From NCBI GenBank assembly GCA_017304945.1, contig JAFKLG010000069.1:61936-125935 (forward strand): a DNA stretch of 64,000 nucleotides, given 5' to 3'. Position numbers and translations under genes: made by a program. The stretch comes from Rhodospirillales bacterium (GTDB taxonomy: Bacteria; Pseudomonadota; Alphaproteobacteria; Acetobacterales; Acetobacteraceae). Below, in pieces: positions 1,408 to 57,939 of the stretch. Every line of letters begins with the position of its first letter. The stretch's first letter is position 1. A model generated the notes under the pieces. That model was not told the origin of the DNA. It worked only from the letters and a program-made list of their open reading frames with translations, and made no database searches.

Positions 1408-1584
1408 CTACACGCGGCCGGCCCTCATGCGACGACCTTGGCCACCGACGCGGCCCATCACCTTGAACCGCTCTTCCCCGTCGCTCTCATGGATGGAGGG
1501 GATGAGGAGATGCGCGTCATCCTCGGCAAGAATCCGGTCCCCGATGGCCAGCGCCAGCTCATGCTCTTGGCGATTGCCGCGTCC
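1408..1584 (-). pseudogene. Possible remnant of a BrnT-type (COG2929) toxin gene, with no start codon and a truncated C-terminus
   Basis: My translation of the minus strand between an upstream TAA (1585-1587) and a TAG (1408-1410) is GRGNRQEHELALAIGDRILAEDDAHLLIPSIHESDGEERFKVMGRVGGQGRRMRAGRV. The spacing N-x3-H-x-L-x-L...IL-x-ED...H-x-S-x-GEERF...G resembles the BrnT core (N..KHGV.F.EA..VF.D...HS..EER...G). There is no ATG, and the conserved C-terminal RIISAR part is missing. Confidence 0.3.
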
Positions 1585-1717
1585 TTACCGCTGATACGAC
1601 TGGCACTGCACACTCTCACACGCTGACGCCGCACACGGACTGTTGCGCTTCGCTGCGACAACCGCTGCGTGCAGGCCTCGTTCCCGGTCCGATTGGATTT
1701 CGGACCGGAGCAACGGA

Positions 1718-2470
1718 ATGCCCAAGGAATCGAGCGAACAGAAGAAAACGGTCGGCCGCGTCATGCACGAGTTCAAGCATGGCGAGCTGGAGACTGCCGG
1801 CGGCCGCAAGGTGAAGAACCCGCGCCAGGCGATCGCGATCGGACTGCGCGAGGCCGGGGCCTCCAACCAGGAGAGCCCGAAGCGCAATCGCCAGTCCCTC
1901 GCCCGCACCAAGGCGAAGGAGCGGCGGGGCGAGACCGCGCAGCAGGAGAAGGAAGGCCGCGGCGCGATGGATCGCGGCCGTGCGCGCCGCGCCGCCACGC
2001 GCAAGAGCAGCGGCACCGCCGGCACGCGCAAGAGCGCCAAGGCGGGCAGCCGCAAGAGCGCGGCGAAGTCCGCAACCGGCACCTCGGCACGCCGCACCGC
2101 CCGCAAGGCGCCGCGCACCGGGGGGACGCAGCGCAAGACGGCAAGCGGCACCCGCAAGGCCGCGAGCGGCACGCGCAAGACGGCGCGCACGGCCCGCAAG
2201 GCCGCAAGCGGCGCCCGCAAGACCGCGAGCCACGCCCGCAAGCCCGCAAGCGGCGCCCGCAAGACCGCGAGCCACGCCCGCACGGCGAACGGCAGCGCCC
2301 GCAAGTCCGCGACCAGCGCCCGCGCGGCGAACGGTGGCGCGGCGCGCAAGACGTCCGGCCGGCGCGGCGAGAAGACCCGCGCGGAACTCTACGCGATGGC
2401 GCGCCGCCGCGGCGTCGAAGGGCGCTCGCACATGAACAAGGCGGAGCTGCAGCAGGCGCTCAGCCGCTGA
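1718..2470 (+). CDS. Basic low-complexity protein: DUF6496-like N-terminus, Ala/Lys/Arg/Thr-rich repeat core, and a Rho-termination-factor-N-like (SAP-like) C-terminus
   Basis: ATG at 1718 with GGAG 7 nt upstream. The N-terminus KKTVGRVMHEFKHGELETAGGRKVKNPRQAIAIGLREAG matches small alphaproteobacterial stress-type proteins. The core consists of (A/T)SG(A/T)RK(T/A)A repeats. The C-terminus is TRAELYAMARRRGVEGRSHMNKAELQQALSR. Confidence 0.7.
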   Translation: MPKESSEQKKTVGRVMHEFKHGELETAGGRKVKNPRQAIAIGLREAGASNQESPKRNRQSLARTKAKERRGETAQQEKEGRGAMDRGRARRAATRKSSGTAGTRKSAKAGSRKSAAKSATGTSARRTARKAPRTGGTQRKTASGTRKAASGTRKTARTARKAASGARKTASHARKPASGARKTASHARTANGSARKSATSARAANGGAARKTSGRRGEKTRAELYAMARRRGVEGRSHMNKAELQQALSR

Positions 2471-6461: not shown

Positions 6462-7859
6462 ATGACCGTCCGCACCCGCTTCGCCCCCAGCCCGACCGGC
6501 CTGCTGCATATCGGCGGCGCCCGCACCGCGCTGTTCAACTTTCTCTACAGCCGCCACACCGGCGGCGAGTTCCTGCTGCGCATCGAGGACACCGATCGCG
6601 AACGCTCCACTGACGCGGCGACGCAGGTGATCCTGGAAGGGCTCGACTGGCTCGGCCTGAAGCATGACGGCCAGACCGTGTTCCAGTCGACCCGTGCCGC
6701 CCGCCACGCCGAGGTCGCGCACCAGTTGCTGGAGGCCGGTCGCGCCTATCGCTGCTACTGCACGGCGGAGGAGCTGAAGCAGATGCGCGAGCAGGCGATC
6801 GCCGAGGGCCGCTCCCCCCGCTATGACGGGCGCTGGCGCGATCGCGACCCGTCGGAGGCGCCCGCCGGCGTCTCCCCCGCCATCCGGCTCAAGGCGCCGC
6901 GCGACGGCGACACGGTGGTGGAGGACCTGGTGCAGGGCACCGTCCGCGTCGCCAACGCCGAACTGGACGACATGATCATCCTGCGCAGCGACGGCACGCC
7001 CACCTACCAGCACGCCGTGGTGGTGGACGACCACGACATGGGCATCACCCACGTCATCCGCGGCGACGACCACCTGACCAACACGTTCCGCCAGGTGCAG
7101 ATCTACCAGGCGATGGGCTGGGAGACGCCCACCTTCGCCCATATCCCGCTGATCCACGGCGCGGACGGCGCCAAGCTGTCGAAGCGGCACGGCGCCGTCT
7201 CGGTGCTGGAATTCCGCGAACAGGGCTTCCTGCCCGAAGCCGTCTGCAACTACCTCCTGCGGCTCGGATGGTCCCACGGCGACCTCGAATTCGTGCCGAT
7301 GGCGGAGGCGATCCGGCTGTTCGACATCGTCGACGTGAACCGCGGCGCGGCGCGCATGGACTACGCCAAGCTCACCCATCTGAACGGCGTCTACATCCGC
7401 CAGGCGGACGACGAGCGGCTGACCAAGGAGGTGCTGCAGCGCCTCGCGCACCGGCACGAGCTGTCGCTGGGCGCGGTCGCGGCGGGGCGGATCCGCGCGC
7501 TGATGCCGGCGCTGAAGGAGCGCGCCAAGACGCTGGTGGAGCTGGCGGACGCGGCGGCGTTCCTGGCGCGGGTGGTGCCCCTGCCCTTCGAGCCCAAGGC
7601 CGCGGCGGCGCTGACGCCGGAGGCCAAGCTGATGCTGCGCGATCTCGCGCCCGCGCTGGCGGCGACGGATTTCTCCGTCCCGGCGCTGGATGCGGCGCTG
7701 CGGGCCTTCGCGGAGGCGACCGGCCGGAAGCTGGGCCAGGTGGCGCAGCCGCTGCGCGCCGCGCTGACCGGCAGCACCGTCAGCCCGGGAATCGACGCGA
7801 CGCTCGCCGCGCTCGGCCGTGACGAATCCCTGGCGCGGATCGCTGCCGCGGCGGCGTAA
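6462..7859 (+). CDS. gltX: Glutamate--tRNA ligase
   Basis: Starts at [26 protein letters not shown] (HIGH motif) and contains KLSKRHG (KMSKS motif). ATG at 6462 verified in sequence. Confidence 0.9.
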
Positions 7860-8028
7860 GCCTCCCGTCGACACCCCCGGGCGGCAAAGCCGCGTGACTG
7901 GGCGCGCCGGCACACCCGGCCGCGCACCCGCGCGAGACGGCACGTCGGAACCCCGAGCCGCTGGAGGCCGACCGTCGCCTCCAGGTCGCGCAGAAAAATC
8001 GGCGCACGCTTACGAAAGCGCGGATGTT

Positions 8029-8042
8029 TTGATCCAGATCAA
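8029..8042 (+). promoter_or_regulatory. Perfect FNR/FixK-type box, TTGATCCAGATCAA
   Basis: Read directly from the sequence: TTGAT-N4-ATCAA in a locally AT-richer stretch of the gltX-czcD spacer. CATGTT at 8065-8070 is positioned as a -10 element for a class II (-41.5) promoter firing rightwards. Confidence 0.55.
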
Positions 8043-8076
8043 TGGCCGCCGCGCGACCTGGCGGCATGTTGTTCCT

Positions 8077-8166
8077 CGAGAAGCGGACGAGGTCTTCTCG
8101 TCTTGCTCCTCTCTTGGACTCCTCCCCAAACTTGGCGGTGCCACCACGGCACCGCCTTTCTTTTTG
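8077..8166 (+). ncRNA. Candidate FNR/FixK-activated small RNA (about 90 nt). The 5' end is inferred; the 3' end is at the intrinsic terminator.
   Basis: There is no ATG or plausible ORF between the predicted TSS and the terminator. The 5' hairpin is GACGAG(8086-8091)/CTCGTC(8097-8102). A single-stranded CU-rich stretch carries CUCCUCUC (8106-8113) and CUCCUCCCC (8119-8127). A terminator hairpin and U-tract follow. Confidence 0.4.
8134..8166 (+). terminator. Rho-independent terminator
   Basis: Perfect 9-bp stem GGCGGTGCC(8134-8142)/GGCACCGCC(8148-8156), 5-nt loop, followed by TTTCTTTTT. Confidence 0.7.
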
Positions 8167-8286
8167 TGTGTCGCGCGCCGAGCGCGCCGCGATGCCTGCG
8201 ATCGGGGATCCGGGGCTGGTCGGGCGGCCCCTCTGGCGCGGCCCGAGGATGACACGGGACCGACGGCCGCGAGTCAGAGAGGGTGG

Positions 8287-9435
8287 TCAGACCACCTCGT
8301 TGGGGCGCAGGCGGCAAAGAGCAGCGTCGGCGTCGCTCTCGATCTGCAGGGTCGCGTGGCCGATGCCGAAGCGCTGACGCAGTTGGGTGGCGAGTTCGTG
8401 CGGTCGCCGGTCCTCCTGCTCTCCGGCGTAGACGAGATGCGCGGTCAGCGCGGTCTCGGTGGTGCTGAGGCCCCAGATGTGCAGGTCGTGCACCTCGACC
8501 ACGCCCGGCAGGTTTGCCAGCCAGGCCCGCACCGCCTCCTGCTCGACCTGCTGCGGCACGGCATCCATCGCGAGGTCGACCGATTCGCGTAGCAGCCCCC
8601 AGGTGCCCACGGCGATCGCAACCGCGATGCCGATGCTGGCGAGCGGATCGATCCAGGCGAGGCCGGTGAGCTGGATCACCAGCGCGGCGATCACCACGCC
8701 CAGGGAGATCAGCGCGTCGCCGCCCAGATGCAGGAACTGCGCCTTGATGTTCAGGTCCTTCTCCCGCCCGGCCATGAACAGCAGCGCGGTGCCGCCGTTC
8801 ACCAGGATGCCGAGTCCGGCGACGATCATCACGGTGACCTCGGCGACGGGCTGCGGGTCGAACAGGCGCTGCACCGCCTCGAGCGCGATGGCGCCGACGC
8901 CGACCAGCAGGATCGCCGCGTTCACCAGCGCCGCCAGGATCGAGCTGCGCCCCCAGCCATAGGTGCGGCGGCCGGCCGGCGGCCGGCGGCTGAGCCATGC
9001 CGCGCCCCAGCCCAGCAGCAGGGCGAGCACGTCGCCCAGATTGTGCACGGCATCGGCGACCAGCGCGACCGAGTTGGCGGCGATGCCGAACGCCACCTCG
9101 GCCAGCACGAAGGCAGTGTTCACCGCGGCGGCGATGGCGAAGGCGCGGTCGTTGCCCTCGGGCGGGAGGTGATGATGATGGTGATGGCCCCCCGCCCCAT
9201 GGCTGTGCCCGTGCCCCGTGTGGTCGTGCCCGGCGTGGTCGTGCCCCGTGTGGTCGTGCCCCGTGTGGTCGTGCCCCGCGTGATCGTCCGCTCCGTGGTC
9301 GTGGCCTGCATGATCGTGCCCGGCGTGATCGTCCGCGGGGCCGCCTTCCGGACCGAATCCGGAACGACGTGGGCTGGAGGGGCCTTGACTCGCGGGAAAA
9401 TTCACGGATTGGTGACCCGACTGCGGCGTGCTCAT
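8287..9435 (-). CDS. czcD: Cation diffusion facilitator (CzcD/ZitB-type divalent metal exporter) with a long His-rich N-terminal extension
   Basis: CDF core motifs HNLGDVLALLLGW and HLGGDALISLGVV, with C-terminal VHDLHIWGLSTTETALTAHL. The N-terminus has (HDHxG)n repeats and HHHHHH. Confidence 0.85.
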   Translation of the reverse strand: MSTPQSGHQSVNFPASQGPSSPRRSGFGPEGGPADDHAGHDHAGHDHGADDHAGHDHTGHDHTGHDHAGHDHTGHGHSHGAGGHHHHHHLPPEGNDRAFAIAAAVNTAFVLAEVAFGIAANSVALVADAVHNLGDVLALLLGWGAAWLSRRPPAGRRTYGWGRSSILAALVNAAILLVGVGAIALEAVQRLFDPQPVAEVTVMIVAGLGILVNGGTALLFMAGREKDLNIKAQFLHLGGDALISLGVVIAALVIQLTGLAWIDPLASIGIAVAIAVGTWGLLRESVDLAMDAVPQQVEQEAVRAWLANLPGVVEVHDLHIWGLSTTETALTAHLVYAGEQEDRRPHELATQLRQRFGIGHATLQIESDADAALCRLRPNEVV

Positions 9436-48606: not shown

Positions 48607-48753
48607 TCAGGATCGGTCGTCGTCGAACAGGATGCGGTTCGCGGCCCCTTCCAGGTCGTCGTACTGGCCGGACCGGAGCGCCCAGAGGAACACCGCGAGC
48701 CCGCCGCCGCCCAGCACCAGGCTGCCGGCCAGCAGATACAGGATGACGCTCAT
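48607..48753 (-). CDS. ccoS: cbb3 oxidase maturation protein CcoS/FixS
   Basis: 48 aa: MSVILYLLAGSLVLGGGGLAVFLWALRSGQYDDLEGAANRILFDDD. ATG verified at 48753; 4-nt overlap with the ccoI stop. Confidence 0.85.
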   Translation of the reverse strand: MSVILYLLAGSLVLGGGGLAVFLWALRSGQYDDLEGAANRILFDDDRS

Positions 48754-51179
48754 CTTGCCCCTCCCCGCCTCAGGCGGAAGCTGTTCAGGATCACCAGCAG
48801 CGACGAGCTCGACATGGCCGCCGCCGCGAGCCAGGGCGTGACCAGGCCGGCCACCGCCAGCGGCACCATCAGCACGTTGTAGCCGATCGACAGCGCCAGA
48901 TTTTCCCGCATGGTCGCCCGCGCGCGGCGCGCGGTGTCGAGGATCGTGGCGACGGGGGCGAGGTCGTGGCCCTGGAACACCACGTCCGCCACGGTCTGGC
49001 TGATATCGGCTGCCGTCGCCGGCGAGGCGGAGACATGCGCCGCCGCCAGCGAGGGCCCGTCGTTGAGCCCGTCGCCCACCATCAGCACGCGCCGGCCGGA
49101 CGCCGCGAGCGCTTCGATCGCGGCGACCTTCTCGACCGGCGAGCAGCCCGCCTGCCATGCATCGATGCCCAGCGTCGCGGCCACCCGCTCGACCGCCCCC
49201 GCGCGGTCGCCGGAGAGGAGGCGAATGTCGACGCCCATGCGGCGCAGGCGCGCGATGACGGCAGCGGCGTCGGGGCGCAGCCGCTCGTCGAACACGAAGC
49301 GCACCGGCGCCTGGTGCGGCCGCGCGAGCCACAATTCCGGACGGTCGGCCGGCGGCGCGTCCGGATCGCCGCAGAAGGCGCGGCTGCCGAGGCGGATCTC
49401 GCCCAGGCTCAGGCCCTGGCCTTGATGTTCCACCACGCCGGCGGCGGCATGCACCGGACCGGCGGCGGCGAGCAGCGAGCGCGCGAGCGGATGCCGGCTG
49501 CTCGCCGCGAGCGAGGCCGCGAGACGCAAGCTCTCCGGATCGGGCGCGTTGGCGTCCCGGGTCTGCTCCCCTGCCCCGACCAGGCCCAGCGTGGGGTCGG
49601 TCAGCGTGCCGGTCTTGTCGAACACGACGGTGTCGACCTCGGCCAGCCGCTCGAGCGCGGTCGCCGACTTGAGCAGCACGCCCGACTGGAACAGCCGGCT
49701 GGTGGCGATCACCTGCACCGCCGGCACCGCGAGCGCCAGCGCGCAGGGGCAGGTGATGATCAGCACCGCGCTCGCGATCAGCAGCGCGGGGGCGAGCGCC
49801 ATGCCGCCGATCAGGTACCAGTAGAGGAAGCTCAGCAGCGCGGTCAGGTGGACGGCGGGCGCGTAGCGGCGCGCGACCCGGTCGGCGAGCACCACGAAGC
49901 GCGAGCGCCGCGCCTCCGCCGCCTCGATCAGCCGCACGCATTCGGCGAGCAGGGTCGCACCGCCGGTGGCGGTCGCCCGCACGACCAGCGGCTCGCCCAG
50001 GTTCAGCGTACCGGCGAACACTTGCGTGCCGATGCCTGCCTGCACCGGCAGGCTCTCGCCGGTCACCAGGCTGGCATCGAGCGCCGAGGTCCCGCGTTCC
50101 ACCACCCCGTCCACGCCGATGCGTTCGCCGAGGCCGACCAGGATGCGATCGCCGGGGGCGACGGCCTGCTGCGCGCGGCGGAGCGTGGTGCCGTCCGGCT
50201 GCAGCACGGCGACGTCGCTGGCGCGCAGCGTCAGGAGCTGTTCGGCGGTGGCGCGGGCGACGCCGCGGGCGCGGTGGTCGAGCACGCGGCCGATCAGCAG
50301 GAAGAACAGCAGCGAGACCGCGCTGTCGAAATAGGTGTGCTCGCCGTGGCGGTAGCTCTCCACCAGGCTCATCACCGTGACCAGCATCACGCCGATGCTG
50401 ATCGGCACGTCCATGTTGCTGCGGCCCTGGCGCAGCGCCGCGGCGGCGGAGCGGAAGAACGGCATGCCGGCATAGGCAATGGCCGGGAGCGCGATCAGTG
50501 CGGAGAACCAGTGCAGCAGGTCGCGCGTCGCCGGCCCCATGCCGTCGAGCCAGCCCGCCGCCTCCCCGGCCCAGATGCCGATCGAGATGAACATGACGTT
50601 GCCGGCCGCGAACCCCGCGACGGCGAGCGCGCGCATCAGGGCGCGGCCGGTATGGTCCTGCGCCGCCTTCAGCGCGGCGGCGTCGAACGGAACCAGCCGG
50701 TAGCCGAGCGCCTCGATCCGGCCGACCAGGCGTTCGGCATCGGCGGCGGCGCCGCGCCAAACCAGGCGGAGGCGGCGCGTGGTCATGTTGACACGGCCCG
50801 CGGCGACGGCGGGCTCGCGGCCGAGCACGCTCTCGATCAGCCAGACGCAGGCACCGCATTGCAGCCCGTCGATCGCCATCGAGAGTTCGCAGGTTCCGTC
50901 TTCGTTGACCGTGACCGCGCGGTCGAGGTCCCAGCGCTCCCCGGTTTCGGGGCGCGGCGCCCGCAACGCCGGGTCGAGCAGCCGCTGCTGGTAGTAGCGG
51001 CCGAGACCGAGGCCCTGGATGGTCTCGAAGGCGGCGCTGCAGCCGGGGCAGCAGAAGCGCGGGCCACGCGCGCCCGATCCGCCGCCGTCCGGGATCGGCT
51101 GGCCGCAATGGGCGCAGACGGTTTCGGCGGCCTCGGCCGATGCGGCGTGCAGGAGACGGTCGGCGGTGACGGCGGTCAT
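48750..51179 (-). CDS. ccoI: Copper-translocating P1B-type ATPase CcoI/FixI
   Basis: N-terminal CAHCGQP metal site, CPC motif (ITCPCALALAVP), DKTGTLT phosphorylation site and GDGLNDGP. Confidence 0.9.
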   Translation of the reverse strand: MTAVTADRLLHAASAEAAETVCAHCGQPIPDGGGSGARGPRFCCPGCSAAFETIQGLGLGRYYQQRLLDPALRAPRPETGERWDLDRAVTVNEDGTCELSMAIDGLQCGACVWLIESVLGREPAVAAGRVNMTTRRLRLVWRGAAADAERLVGRIEALGYRLVPFDAAALKAAQDHTGRALMRALAVAGFAAGNVMFISIGIWAGEAAGWLDGMGPATRDLLHWFSALIALPAIAYAGMPFFRSAAAALRQGRSNMDVPISIGVMLVTVMSLVESYRHGEHTYFDSAVSLLFFLLIGRVLDHRARGVARATAEQLLTLRASDVAVLQPDGTTLRRAQQAVAPGDRILVGLGERIGVDGVVERGTSALDASLVTGESLPVQAGIGTQVFAGTLNLGEPLVVRATATGGATLLAECVRLIEAAEARRSRFVVLADRVARRYAPAVHLTALLSFLYWYLIGGMALAPALLIASAVLIITCPCALALAVPAVQVIATSRLFQSGVLLKSATALERLAEVDTVVFDKTGTLTDPTLGLVGAGEQTRDANAPDPESLRLAASLAASSRHPLARSLLAAAGPVHAAAGVVEHQGQGLSLGEIRLGSRAFCGDPDAPPADRPELWLARPHQAPVRFVFDERLRPDAAAVIARLRRMGVDIRLLSGDRAGAVERVAATLGIDAWQAGCSPVEKVAAIEALAASGRRVLMVGDGLNDGPSLAAAHVSASPATAADISQTVADVVFQGHDLAPVATILDTARRARATMRENLALSIGYNVLMVPLAVAGLVTPWLAAAAMSSSSLLVILNSFRLRRGGAR

Positions 51180-55067: not shown

Positions 55068-56558
55068 TCACTCCCCCGCCACGGCCACGCCGGCCGGCAG
55101 CGCCTCACGACGCGCGGTCGAGGGGCTGCGGACGGTCTGGATCAGGTTGTAGACCATGATCAGCGCACCGCTCAGGAAGAACACGCCGCCGATCAGCCGG
55201 ATCACGTAGTAGGGGTGCACCGCGTTCACGGACTCCGCGAACGAGTACTGCAGGAAGCCGAACTGGTCGTAGGCGCGCCACATCAGGCCCTGCATGATGC
55301 CGGCCACCCACATCGAGGTGATGTAGAAGACGATGCCCAGCGTCGCGACCCAGTAGTGCCAGGACACCAGCCGGGTGGAATACAGACGCTCGCGTTTCCA
55401 CAGCACCGGCACCAGGTAATAGATCGCGCCGAAGCTGATGAACGCGACCCAGCCCAGCGCGCCGGAATGCACGTGGCCGATGCCCCAGTCGGTGTAGTGC
55501 GACAGCGAGTTCACGTCGCGGATCGACATCACCGGGCCCTCGAAGGTCGACATGCCGTAGAAGCCGACGGCGGTCACCGAGAAGCGCAGGCCGGGATCGG
55601 TGCGCAGTTTGTCCCAGGCGCCCGACAGGGTCATGATGCCGTTGATCATGCCGCCCCAGGACGGCATCCACAGCATGACCGAGAACGCCATGCCCAGCGT
55701 CTGCGTCCAGTCGGGCAGCGCGGTCCAGTGCAGGTGGTGCGGACCCGCCCACATGTACATGAAGATCAGCGACCAGAAGTGCACGATCGACAGCCGGTAG
55801 GAGTAGACCGGCCGTCCCGCCGCCTTCGGAATGAAGTAGTACATCATTCCCAGGAAGCCCGCGGTCAGGAAGAAGCCCACCGCGTTGTGGCCGTACCACC
55901 ACTGGATCATGGCGTTCTGCACGCCGGAGGCGAAGTTGTAGCTCTTGGCGGTGTAGATCGAGACCGGCAGGGCGACGTTGTTGCCCAAATGCAGGATCGC
56001 GACGGTCAGGATGAACGCCAGATAGAACCAGTTGGCGACATAGATGTGCGGCTCCTCGCGCTTCAGCAAGGTGCCGATGAACACCACCGCATAGAGCACC
56101 CAGACGACCGTCAGCCACAGGTCGAGATGCCACTCGGGTTCGGCGTATTCCTGGCCCTGGCTGAACCCCATCACGTAGGACAGCGCAGCCATTACGATGA
56201 AGAACTGGTAGCCCCAGAACAGGAAGTTCGCGAGCGCCTCGCCGCCGAACAGCCGCGCGCGGCAGGTGCGCTGCACGACGTAGAGCGAGGTGCCGAACAG
56301 CGCGGAGCCGCCGAAGGCGAAGATCGCGGCCGAGGTGTGCACCGGACGGAGGCGGCCGAAATTGGTGAAGGACAGGCCGAGGTTGAGTTGCGGCCAAGCG
56401 AGCTGGGCTGCGATCACCACGCCCACCAGGAAGGCCACCACCGCCCAGAACATCGCGGCGATGGTGAACTTGCGTACCACCGCCTCGTTGTAGACGACGG
56501 CCGTACGTGCCGGTGCGTGTGCCACCGGCATCACCCCACCGATGGCGAGGTCAGACAT
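55068..56558 (-). CDS. ccoN: cbb3-type cytochrome c oxidase subunit I (CcoN/FixN)
   Basis: 496 aa with 12+ TM helices. Heme-copper oxidase His ligands lie in the conserved contexts [19 protein letters not shown] and [10 protein letters not shown]. Confidence 0.9.
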
Positions 56559-56772: not shown

Positions 56773-56863
56773 CTGCAACTCCGGTGAAGGTGCACGCTAA
56801 GGGCACGGCGGCCGGGACTCGGCGCGCTTCACCGCAAATTGGAGAGGCGGGATTACCCCAGCA

Positions 56864-56877
56864 TTGACGCAGATCAA
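56864..56877. promoter_or_regulatory. FNR/FixK-type box TTGACGCAGATCAA (one mismatch to TTGAT-N4-ATCAA) in the divergent spacer upstream of the cco operon
   Basis: Read directly from the sequence. Its centre lies about 98 bp from the small-ORF ATG (minus strand) and about 41 bp from the GTG at 56912 (plus strand). Confidence 0.6.
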
Positions 56878-56935
56878 TGCTGGCGACAGGTCCCGTCCAC
56901 ATGGTTGCAGCGTGGACACGGGACTCGCCGCGTTG

Positions 56936-57676
56936 ATGGCTTGGTGCGGGTCCGTCCCCATCGGGGGCGGGCTGCTGGCCGGTCTTGCCCTGGCGGGGCT
57001 CGCCGGAGCGCCGATGCATTGCGCACCGATGTGTGGCGGCTTCGTCCTGGGCCAGGTCGCCGACCGCATGGCCGCGCTGCCGGCCGCGCGGCTATGCGAA
57101 TGGCGACGCCTGCGCGCTGGCCTGCTGCTGCCGTACCATCTCGGACGCCTCACCACCTACGCCGCGCTGGGCGCGCTCGCCGGCGCGGGCGGCGGGGCGC
57201 TGCTGCGGCTGCCCTGGTTCGGCCGGCTGTCGGCGTTGCTGCTGCTGCTGGGCGCGGCGCTGTTCCTGGTGCATGCGCTGCGCCGCCTCGCCCCCCGCCT
57301 CGGGCGCGCCCTGCCCGCCCTCGACCACGTGCCTTCCGGCTGGAACCGGCTGCTCGCACGCACGAGCCGCCGCATCGACCGCACCCGCCCCCACGGCTTC
57401 TACCTCCTCGGCGTGCTGCTCGGTTTTCTCCCCTGCGGCGTGCTGTATGCGGCGCTGATCGCCGCCGCCGGAGCCGGATCGGCCGCGCTGGGTGCCGCCG
57501 GGATGCTCGCCTTCGGCCTCGGCACCGCGCCCACGCTGATGCTGATCGGGATCGCCGGGCAGGCCGCGGGCGCGCGCTGGCAGGCGGGCGTCGCGCGCTG
57601 CGCACCGGCCGTGATGCTGCTCAACGCGGTGCTGCTGGCACTGCTCGCGATGCGCGGGCTGGGCACCGCGGCATGA
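56936..57676 (+). CDS. DsbD_2 / TauE-SafE-like membrane protein with an HCxxMCG motif
   Basis: Six or more hydrophobic helices and GAPMHCAPMCGGFVLG near the N-terminus. The start is uncertain (GTG at 56912 or ATG at 56936). The listed TTG at 56864 falls inside the FixK box and is unlikely to be the start. Confidence 0.7.
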   Translation: MAWCGSVPIGGGLLAGLALAGLAGAPMHCAPMCGGFVLGQVADRMAALPAARLCEWRRLRAGLLLPYHLGRLTTYAALGALAGAGGGALLRLPWFGRLSALLLLLGAALFLVHALRRLAPRLGRALPALDHVPSGWNRLLARTSRRIDRTRPHGFYLLGVLLGFLPCGVLYAALIAAAGAGSAALGAAGMLAFGLGTAPTLMLIGIAGQAAGARWQAGVARCAPAVMLLNAVLLALLAMRGLGTAA

Positions 57677-57738
57677 GCGGGCGGCATGTGATGCGGATCC
57701 CGGCCCCGCGATGCGGCCGGTGAACAGAGGATCGTGGC

Positions 57739-57939
57739 ATGACACGCAATGTCGGTTCGGTCGATCGGGTGCTGCGGGTGATCGTGGGCCTGGTGCTGAT
57801 CGCCCTCGTCTTCGTCGGGCCGGAGACCCCATGGGGCTGGATCGGCCTCATCCCGCTGGGCTCCGCCCTGATCGGCTTCTGCCCGCTCTATTCCCTCCTG
57901 GGCGTCAACACCTGCCGGCGCACGCAGCCGGAGGGCTGA
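57739..57939 (+). CDS. DUF2892 (YgaP C-terminal-like) small membrane protein
   Basis: 66 aa: NVGSVDRVLRVIVGLVLIALVF...IGLIPLGSALIGFCPLYSLLGVNTC, the typical two-helix DUF2892 pattern. Confidence 0.75.
   Translation: MTRNVGSVDRVLRVIVGLVLIALVFVGPETPWGWIGLIPLGSALIGFCPLYSLLGVNTCRRTQPEG

Follow-up and report, generated by a model that had tools for sequence, protein, structure and literature searches.

The 64-kb window analysed here (64,000 nucleotides of contig JAFKLG010000069.1 from a Rhodospirillales bacterium) contains, between the stop codon of gltX at position 7859 and the 3′ end of a czcD-like gene at position 8287, a spacer of 427 bp that houses all the elements considered below. The question raised by this locus is whether the spacer merely ends gltX or carries a gene of its own. 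The original prediction had read in it an FNR/FixK-type promoter and an intrinsic terminator bounding a non-coding RNA of about 90 nt with anti-Shine-Dalgarno (anti-SD) motifs. The comparative data back this proposal, the box, its spacing, the -10 element, the RNA core and the terminator being conserved together in 93/93 homologues. The locus is best explained as a stand-alone gene for a trans-acting small RNA (sRNA) of about 88 nt, embedded in the gltX 3′ region, and it appears very probable to us that this sRNA gene is transcribed independently, from an FNR-type promoter.

The box, the RNA core and the terminator are conserved together

The coordinates of the gltX-czcD spacer were verified, and a Pfam match backs the name given to czcD. 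The predicted TTGAT-N4-ATCAA box was found as a perfect match at 8029-8042, the sole one in the window, where sites with at most one mismatch number 3 against 0.23 expected from shuffles. The -10-like CATGTT, proposed to stand at the distance of a class II FNR promoter, is present at 8065-8070, and a terminator scan verified the predicted 9-bp GC stem at 8134-8156, of which 8 pairs are G-C and after which comes TTTCTTTTT. No ATG occurs within 8077-8165, as had been stated for the enclosed segment, and the 90-nt segment 8077-8166 exhibited a minimum free energy of -40.4 kcal/mol (z = -5.7 versus shuffles). From the gltX stop to the sRNA promoter no intrinsic terminator was detected, the scan giving weak stem candidates only before 8134.

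Homologues were collected through GltX and through the RNA itself. GltX orthologues of 74-95% identity were found in 80 Acetobacteraceae-type genomes, nearly all of them uncultured metagenome-assembled genomes from soil or peat, and GltX orthology groups the window with Acetobacteraceae related to Rhodopila and Acidocella. The sRNA module is located downstream of gltX in 14 of the 80 gltX loci, and in the best-matching loci the blastn alignment begins at the box. The metagenome scan, whose query was the 19-nt RNA core CTCTCTTGGACTCCTCCCC only, with the box excluded, gave 90 core matches across 88 stretches; 6 of the 90 lack a terminator, which corresponds to the chance expectation, and the remainder are homologues. 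The copies total 99, with 1 from the window, 14 from related Acetobacteraceae genomes (found via GltX) and 84 from metagenomes. The box was evaluable in the 93 copies that have at least 110 nt of upstream sequence, the promoter profile comprises 87 unique promoters, and the RNA alignment holds 80 unique RNAs of 78-95 nt. Because the metagenome copies were retrieved by exact core match, core invariance within that set is by construction and not a result, whereas the presence of the box there is not by construction. The bases of the core CTCTCTTGGACTCCTCCCCA are invariant in the window copy and in 14/14 genome homologues, which were retrieved through GltX and not through the core, with one extra C inside the core C-run of locus L016.

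The TTGAT-N4-ATCAA box was present in 93/93 evaluable copies, perfect in 81 and with one mismatch in 12, with none worse, at 71-83 nt from the core. A box with at most one mismatch occurs in 0.4% of random 110-nt segments of the window, and its presence in every evaluable copy is thus far beyond chance. Among the gltX loci, it was found in 14/14 of those with the RNA and in 3/64 of those without it (Fisher p = 7e-13). An alignment of the spacer across relatives had been proposed at the outset as a check; in it, box, core and terminator were conserved jointly and compensatory changes were seen in the stems.

A covariance model (R1), for which the window copy was combined with the 14 copies from genome loci, gave 88.4 bits for the window copy and 96 further matches of 44-100 bits in the searched loci, including the third tandem copy of locus L111 despite its inexact core; in a separate search, L025, L028 and L041 scored 93.5-98.5 bits. 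R1 returned nothing credible from 66 other gltX loci, hence no more divergent copies, and a match of 20.7 bits in L008 was rejected as spurious and coding-like. A plasmid collection searched with blastn in distant mode gave no match. The hosts of the family are mostly uncultured soil and peat Acetobacteraceae.

Geometry of the predicted promoter

In the 87 unique promoters, the outer TTGA/TCAA of the half-sites is 100% conserved and the inner base 90-97%, and the two central bases vary. A TG follows the box (T 90%, G 98%), and the -10 element CATnnT stands at +36 to +41 from the box start (C 93%, A 98%, T 89%, last T 95%) with fixed spacing. The 19-nt spacer between the box and the -10 element carries an information content of about 0.1-0.6 bit per position. 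Past the -10 element, a short uninformative stretch precedes renewed conservation from +48/+49 as CG(A/T)GA(A/G)G. From the -10 spacing and this restart of conservation we infer a transcription start at 8077/8078, which would place the centre of the box (8035.5) at -41.5/-42.5. With the start so placed, the predicted promoter has the geometry of the class II FNR type without a -35 hexamer; no -35-like hexamer was read by eye, TCAATG standing at its place. Upstream, A makes up 55-91% at positions -16 to -11, counted from the box start, in the 87 unique promoters, and this A-tract may serve as a UP-like contact at about -59 to -64. On the opposite side of the palindrome, no conserved element occupies the mirror position in a profile reaching 25 nt upstream of the box.

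Structure of the RNA and predicted accessibility of its C/U-rich loop

The predicted RNA structure was examined by covariation in the 80 unique RNAs. Overall, 15/23 modelled pairs have changed on both sides and 91.5% of cells are paired, compared with 47-61% for slid partners, and 0/500 shuffles reach the observed values. In the outer stem P1a, the 5′ GAGRRG (GAGAAGCG in the window) pairs with the first CU motif, and 4 pairs have changed on both sides (for example G-C 44 / A-U 29). The inner stem P1b showed compensatory change in 5/5 modelled pairs, with 98% of cells paired, and the terminator in 6/7, with 99.7% of cells paired and a T-run of 6-9 across the family. The 5′ hairpin that had been predicted at 8086-8102 folds as proposed, but it is nested in a longer stem. 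In the hairpin P2 (UUGG/CCAA) the three inner pairs are invariant and roughly half of the sequences leave the outer U-A pair open; as the inner pairs never vary, covariation neither supports nor refutes P2.

The original prediction had also placed two anti-SD motifs in an unpaired CU-rich stretch, and this held for the second motif only. Ensemble folding of the 80 unique RNAs gave the loop ACUCCUCC at 8118-8125 a mean unpaired probability of 0.81-0.99. The first motif, at 8106-8113, showed a low unpaired probability at its paired positions and is mostly paired in the same RNAs. The accessible C/U motif is predicted, therefore, to be the second only.

Other functions of the RNA were considered and rejected. 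Coding of a small peptide is ruled out by the lack of an ATG and by indels that are not multiples of three between clades and in loops, no reading frame being conserved across the clade and loop indels. A CsrA-type sponge is ruled out by the single GGA motif, read by eye. A conserved antiterminator is ruled out by inspection of the alignment, where pairing of the P1b 3′ arm with the terminator 5′ arm is possible in one clade only. By its sequence, the RNA shows the structural marks of an Hfq-type trans-acting sRNA: its own predicted promoter, non-coding character, an accessible invariant seed, and a terminator with a U tail.

An RNAduplex scan for targets, made within the window, gave as best tiles, besides the antisense strand of the RNA itself, G-rich segments that for the most part have no relation to start codons. 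The best seed partner in the window that resembles a translation initiation region is 48746-48785 on the minus strand, at -26.8 kcal/mol compared with a mean of -10.2 (standard deviation 3.8) for all tiles, and is anecdotal. This segment (GGGGAGGGGCAAGAUG) appears to contain the ribosome binding site and start of a small open reading frame (ORF), possibly ccoS, located after a fixI/ccoI-like gene.

The module in and out of the gltX context

The gltX gene directly precedes the RNA in 63/70 evaluable metagenome copies, its end lying 90-157 nt before the core, and for the majority of loci just 10-70 nt separate the gltX stop from the box start, usually with no terminator between. Such proximity would suit a reading without any separate gene, in which the terminator is merely that of gltX and the box is unrelated or non-functional. 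We consider this extremely improbable, because the segment from box to terminator is far more conserved than either flank and contains covarying stems, because the -10 element keeps its fixed spacing in the 87 unique promoters, and because the module is found without gltX in seven loci and also in tandem. The box is perfect in 7/7 of the copies away from gltX. In one of them, L105, the gene upstream of the sRNA is divergent, so that this copy must have its own promoter. Tandem arrays were found with three copies at L111:728-1205 (minus strand) and two at L147:2226-2549, and L086:1-270 has one partial and one complete copy. A perfect box, a -10-like hexamer and a terminator accompany every one of the L111 units, and the third copy exhibits one substitution in the otherwise invariant core (CTCTTTTGG). 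The sRNA module is independent of genomic context. The elements themselves, their co-conservation, the fixed geometry, the RNA structure and this independence of context are established.

An orphan gene linked to the sRNA

The downstream neighbours of the sRNA are an orphan gene, pyrB or czcD. The orphan gene follows the sRNA terminator by 100-200 nt on the same strand in 68/76 loci, including loci unlinked to gltX. Its product is a membrane-anchored protein of about 160 aa (for example L018:5684-6166, plus strand) with a transmembrane helix at its N-terminus and a beta-rich domain; two Cys residues, His84, His106 and Trp107 are invariant. No Pfam or NCBIfam family matches this protein, and its AlphaFold2 model (mean predicted local distance difference test score 71) gave no PDB fold match at E <= 0.001. 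The named homologues are all annotated as 'hypothetical protein' and their source titles name Acetobacteraceae only.

This linkage, also seen away from gltX, could indicate that the RNA acts in cis on the orphan membrane-protein gene, as its 5′ leader or attenuator, with the FNR promoter driving that gene and the terminator acting as a conditional stop. In the same direction points the FNR-like box (TTGACTTRCATCAA) found immediately upstream of the orphan gene in L010 and L012, relatives that lack the sRNA. We nevertheless hold this leader function to be very unlikely. The orphan gene is missing from the window and its nearest relatives, and in the window, L001, L003, L017 and L160 box, RNA and terminator are intact without it; in the window and L160 a convergent czcD stands in its stead. 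Tandem arrays of two or three full units, each with its own box and terminator, would be unexpected for a leader, and the terminator is strong (9 bp, 8 G-C, 7-9 U) with no conserved antiterminator pairing on inspection of the alignment. Moreover, half of the loci (38/76) have, between the sRNA terminator and the orphan gene, a separate, conserved palindrome TTYA-N7-TGAA situated 25-40 nt before the orphan start (examples in Table 1). This palindrome has the T-N11-A form of LysR-type sites and suggests a separate promoter region for the orphan gene.

FNR-like boxes immediately before the orphan gene were noted in relatives without the sRNA, at L010:1581-1594, L012:5426-5439 and about position 7000 of L006 (TTGACTTACATCAA, TTGACTTGCATCAA or TTGACTTGCCTCAA). 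To judge from such boxes, the orphan gene may itself belong to the FNR/FixK regulon.

Candidate regulators of the promoter

The operon of the cbb3 oxidase is a classic low-oxygen target of FnrL/FixK in Alphaproteobacteria. In the window, a near-consensus FNR/FixK box precedes the cbb3 operon. A -10-like hexamer stands at +36 from it on either strand, CATGGT on the plus and CAATTT on the minus, which is the geometry of the sRNA promoter, and the box is likewise trailed by TG (56878-56879). The site at 56864-56877 looks like a bidirectional class II promoter pair, and it argues for the FNR/FixK regulon that the original prediction had assigned to this genome. Within this operon, the ORFs in the ccoO and ccoP positions and the long ORF in the fixI position were named by position and size, and Pfam backs ccoN only.

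The TTGAT-N4-ATCAA sequence is recognised by several Crp/Fnr subfamilies, including the nitric oxide (NO)-sensing NnrR/Dnr and FixK, which acts downstream of FixLJ. The sRNA gene could consequently be real and its box bound by a Crp/Fnr member that does not sense oxygen, either an NO-responsive NnrR/Dnr or another effector-binding paralogue, a reading to which the lack of an identified regulator gene among the window ORFs examined also lends itself. It seems unlikely to us, given that a box of the same type and geometry precedes the cbb3 operon of the window and that the sole regulator found beside a copy of the sRNA has an iron-sulfur (Fe-S) type signature. This regulator gene (L105, 11343-12101, minus strand), about 640 nt from the sRNA, codes for cNMP_binding and HTH_Crp_2 domains with the N-terminal motif C-x2-C-x7-C of the FnrN/FnrL type, and its best NCBIfam models are FnrL and FixK.

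A tblastn search of the whole window with the L105 protein showed no close relative. A 246-aa ORF at 57092-57832 (minus strand) was considered as a Crp/Fnr gene and rejected, having no Pfam match; the real gene there, on the plus strand, codes for a membrane protein of the DsbD_2 family. Near another sRNA copy unlinked to gltX, in L120, lies a gene for a globin-domain protein (1531-2073, plus strand).

Proposed mechanism and its weight

We propose that an activator of the Crp/Fnr family (FNR/FnrL/FixK type) would bind the TTGATC-N2-GATCAA box, whose centre lies some 41.5-42.5 bp ahead of the predicted start, and would recruit RNA polymerase to the CATnnT promoter without a -35 element by class II activation. 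Transcription would stop at the strong intrinsic terminator and yield an RNA of about 88 nt, folding into a two-part 5′ stem-loop, a weak hairpin that shows the invariant ACUCCUCC in its 8-nt loop, and the terminator with its U tail. The RNA would accumulate while the activator is active, most likely at low oxygen, and its C/U-rich loop would pair with the GGAGG-type ribosome binding sites of a set of mRNAs and repress their translation, probably with Hfq. In this scheme, we infer the identity of the regulator, the oxygen signal, the exact 5′ end, the part played by Hfq, which mRNAs are targeted and in which direction they are regulated. Taken as a whole, with oxygen control and anti-SD repression included, the chain seems to us reasonably probable.

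Several points weigh against this proposal. The transcript, its start and its oxygen dependence are all deduced from the DNA. Since most loci show no terminator belonging to gltX itself, the 3′ untranslated region of gltX probably contains the RNA too, and the same RNA sequence could then arise by processing. The linkage to the orphan gene in 68/76 loci leaves room for a role in cis. As several Crp/Fnr sensors share the box, something other than oxygen sensed by an Fe-S FNR could be the signal. A partial ORF scan brought up no Crp/Fnr-family gene among the window ORFs examined, and no sRNA target emerged from the duplex scan confined to the window.

The degree of conservation of the core might point to another kind of partner. 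The bases of the ~20-nt CUCUCUUGGACUCCUCCCCA are invariant in the 15/15 copies that were not selected by it (one with an extra C), and the same 15 copies differ in the promoter spacer, in the stems and even in GltX (80-95% identity). This invariance much exceeds what an anti-SD seed needs. The RNA might thus be a hypoxia-induced molecule engaging one highly conserved partner, and not an ordinary multi-target repressor, which is an improbable reading in our view. The partner could be a specific conserved mRNA such as that of the linked orphan gene, a sponge RNA, in the way that CrfA serves alphaR8, or the translation machinery, if the RNA mimics the 3′ end of 16S rRNA. Were this so, the orphan gene and the FNR-type regulator would form a low-oxygen module that has so far escaped notice and is peculiar to Acetobacteraceae of soil and peat.

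If the repressor mechanism set out above were confirmed, a post-transcriptional arm would be added to the low-oxygen regulon of soil and peat Acetobacteraceae, and a new RNA family model, lacking in current Rfam annotation, would be justified. The parts are compact: the promoter measures 50 bp, the RNA 88 nt and the seed 8 nt. No concept is overturned, and the value lies in the annotation and in an experimentally testable question.

Coordinates of the locus and its neighbours

The features of the window are collected in Table 1, together with examples of the palindrome found upstream of the orphan gene in other loci.

Table 1 Features of the sRNA locus, of the cbb3 region and of the orphan gene upstream region. 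Positions are those of the window unless a locus is named; an empty cell means that no value is given.
Feature	Position	Strand	Basis or remark
gltX (glutamyl-tRNA synthetase)	6462..7859	+	Upstream gene, same strand as sRNA; ORF and translation
A-rich tract (CGAAAG in window)	8013..8018	+	Positions -16 to -11 before box start
FNR/FixK-type box TTGATCCAGATCAA	8029..8042	+	Family consensus TTGATC-YR-GATCAA
TG directly 3′ of box	8043..8044	+	Conserved across family
-10 hexamer CATGTT (family consensus CATnnT)	8065..8070	+	36 nt after box start
Transcription start, predicted	8077..8078	+	7-8 nt past -10 hexamer; sequence conservation resumes
Predicted sRNA, ~88 nt	8078..8165	+	Covariance model, fold energy, absence of ATG
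Stem-loop 1	8078..8111	+	P1a 8078-8085 with 8104-8111; P1b 8086-8091 with 8097-8102
CU motif 1 (CUCCUCUC)	8106..8113	+	Largely sequestered within P1a
Invariant core CTCTCTTGGACTCCTCCCCA	8109..8128	+	Genome-homologue alignment
Hairpin P2 (UUGG/CCAA)	8114..8129	+	8-nt loop ACUCCUCC at 8118-8125, putative anti-SD seed
Intrinsic terminator	8134..8165	+	Stem-loop 8134-8156, T-run 8157-8165; terminator scan
czcD-like gene	8287-9435	-	Pfam: Cation_efflux family
ccoN (COX1 family)	55068-56558	-	Pfam
Near-consensus FNR/FixK box TTGACGCAGATCAATG	56864-56879 (box 56864-56877; region 56836-56905)		Between ccoN operon (-) and DsbD_2 gene (+)
TTYA-N7-TGAA palindrome, examples	L105:10740-10754; L019 about 5680; L016 about 5680

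Two neighbouring proteins of the window have unusual sequences. The product of the czcD-like gene (8287-9435, minus strand) exhibits a long N-terminal His-rich repeat, HAGHDHAGHDH... followed by HHHHHH, which suggests a metal-binding extension. An ORF at 1643-2470 (plus strand) codes for a Lys/Arg/Ala-rich protein of highly repetitive sequence, in which repeats such as ARKTASGARKTASHARK recur and whose C-terminal end resembles a Rho-N/SAP-like helix; this product may be a histone-like or nucleoid-associated protein.

Comparison with known small RNAs

An Rfam scan had been proposed as a further check. At gathering thresholds it gave no RNA family in the window, and in 14 homologous loci only a tRNA. 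The sRNAs constitute an undescribed family, missed by Rfam at curated thresholds, and would belong to a known kind, that of FNR-activated trans-acting sRNAs with an anti-SD seed and a terminator at their end. What the scan did return was a weak, sub-threshold match to alphaR8 (RF00519), the best Rfam match of the window copy, with 35.4 bits and E = 9.7e-6 in a 431-nt search (7860-8290, full model) compared with a gathering score of 41 bits. RF00519 recurred weakly in 5/7 homologues of the other clade, at 21.5-26.1 bits, scores that are no better than those of spurious rpsL_pseudo and ylbH matches.

The alphaR8 family, which includes MmgR of Sinorhizobium meliloti, SuhB of Sphingopyxis granuli and SisA-D of Caulobacter crescentus, resembles the sRNA family as an alphaproteobacterial RNA of about 80 nt with an accessible CCUCCC segment followed by a terminator. 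It is reported from all Alphaproteobacteria except Rickettsiales, its copies can be multiple, the promoters of siblings can differ, those of SisA-D being unrelated, and its internal single-stranded 10-mer UUUCCUCCCU lies downstream of a weak hairpin (PMC12559287). We considered whether the RNA is a divergent alphaR8 member that acquired an FNR-type promoter. Besides the best Rfam match and its weak recurrence, the wide occurrence of alphaR8 and the unrelated promoters of its siblings speak for such an origin, and so does the common layout, in which a short RNA has its C/U-rich CCUCCC segment immediately 5′ of the intrinsic terminator and a UCUUGG motif before that; the terminator comes directly after the C/U-rich segment in both families. 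An alphaR8-like weak hairpin (UCC/GGA) is possible in the sRNA family and is invariant there, so that, lacking variation, it lies beyond a covariation test.

Against this origin, 15/15 genome-derived copies score under the 41-bit gathering threshold, and a sequence-only profile of the family gives the RF00519 consensus 3.5 bits, compared with 3.1-3.3 for decoys with shuffled 5′ halves. The defining 10-mer is matched at only 7/10 positions by ACUCCUCCCC of the family, which is accessible but predicted in the loop of an invariant 3-4 bp hairpin, and the extra covarying 5′ stem-loop is absent from the RF00519 model. The usual neighbour of alphaR8, a gene for N-formylglutamate amidohydrolase (FGase; PMC12559287), is replaced by gltX and the orphan gene, although the FGase linkage is typical and not obligatory, paralogous alphaR8 copies lying elsewhere. 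The two families further differ in their known regulators, MmgR being controlled by NtrC/AniA (PMC7143759) and SuhB by a LysR-type regulator (bioRxiv 10.64898/2025.12.09.693200), in contrast to the FNR-type box of the sRNA family. On this evidence we judge an alphaR8 origin to be somewhat unlikely. The family may be a distant offshoot of alphaR8; the matter is one of ancestry and is compatible with the proposed mechanism.

The families alphar14/NfeR1, alphar15/AbcR and CcsR/'cuckoo' also have a conserved C/U-rich anti-SD motif that stays unpaired, either in a hairpin loop or in a linker; siblings occur in tandem, and the targets are expected to be translation initiation regions (PMC7143759). 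None of these families matched the locus in Rfam. The sRNA family differs from them by one accessible motif and one masked motif instead of two or three, and by another promoter logic.

Closer in their regulation are the sRNA genes of Rhodobacter sphaeroides, also an alphaproteobacterium, with a regulator of the FNR family at or upstream of the promoter. RSs0019 and RSs2461 have FnrL peaks in their putative promoter regions by chromatin immunoprecipitation (ChIP) sequencing, the effect of FnrL on them not being established (PMC4263372), and the induction of PcrZ by low oxygen requires PrrA and FnrL, the control by FnrL being perhaps indirect (PMC8139620). The original prediction had known of no described equivalent in this kind of bacterium. 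These FnrL-linked sRNAs (PMC4263372, PMC8139620) limit that statement, which stands for a family-wide FNR-box sRNA, since a non-exhaustive literature search found no description of one in Acetobacteraceae or other Alphaproteobacteria. The R. sphaeroides sRNAs showed no sequence relationship to ours, the Rfam scan giving only SorY at 22.6 bits compared with a gathering score of 111, and for RSs0019, RSs2461 and PcrZ there is no description of a consensus class II box that a whole family retains. So far, ChIP peaks and indirect effects have provided the link between FNR/FixK regulators and riboregulation in Alphaproteobacteria, and the present sRNA family is an unusually clean case.

FNR-controlled sRNAs are well studied in enterobacteria, with FnrS of Escherichia coli, and AniS is an FNR-activated sRNA of Neisseria with a similar role; both depend on Hfq. 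The likeness to these two RNAs lies in a short RNA that ends at an intrinsic terminator, an FNR box at what is here the predicted class II position, and a single-stranded C/U-rich segment presumed to pair with ribosome binding sites. FnrS and AniS were not among the Rfam matches at E <= 10 in a permissive scan of 7860-8290; there is no relationship in sequence or structure, and the resemblance is functional and architectural only. The present family differs from them in the bacterial class, in the position of the seed within an 8-nt hairpin loop, in an FNR dependence that is deduced from the promoter, and in a gene embedded behind gltX that often precedes one particular orphan gene. FnrS depends directly on FNR and represses over 30 mRNAs dispensable in anaerobiosis (PMC8139620); by analogy, the sRNA of the gltX spacer would be its functional analogue in soil and peat Acetobacteraceae.

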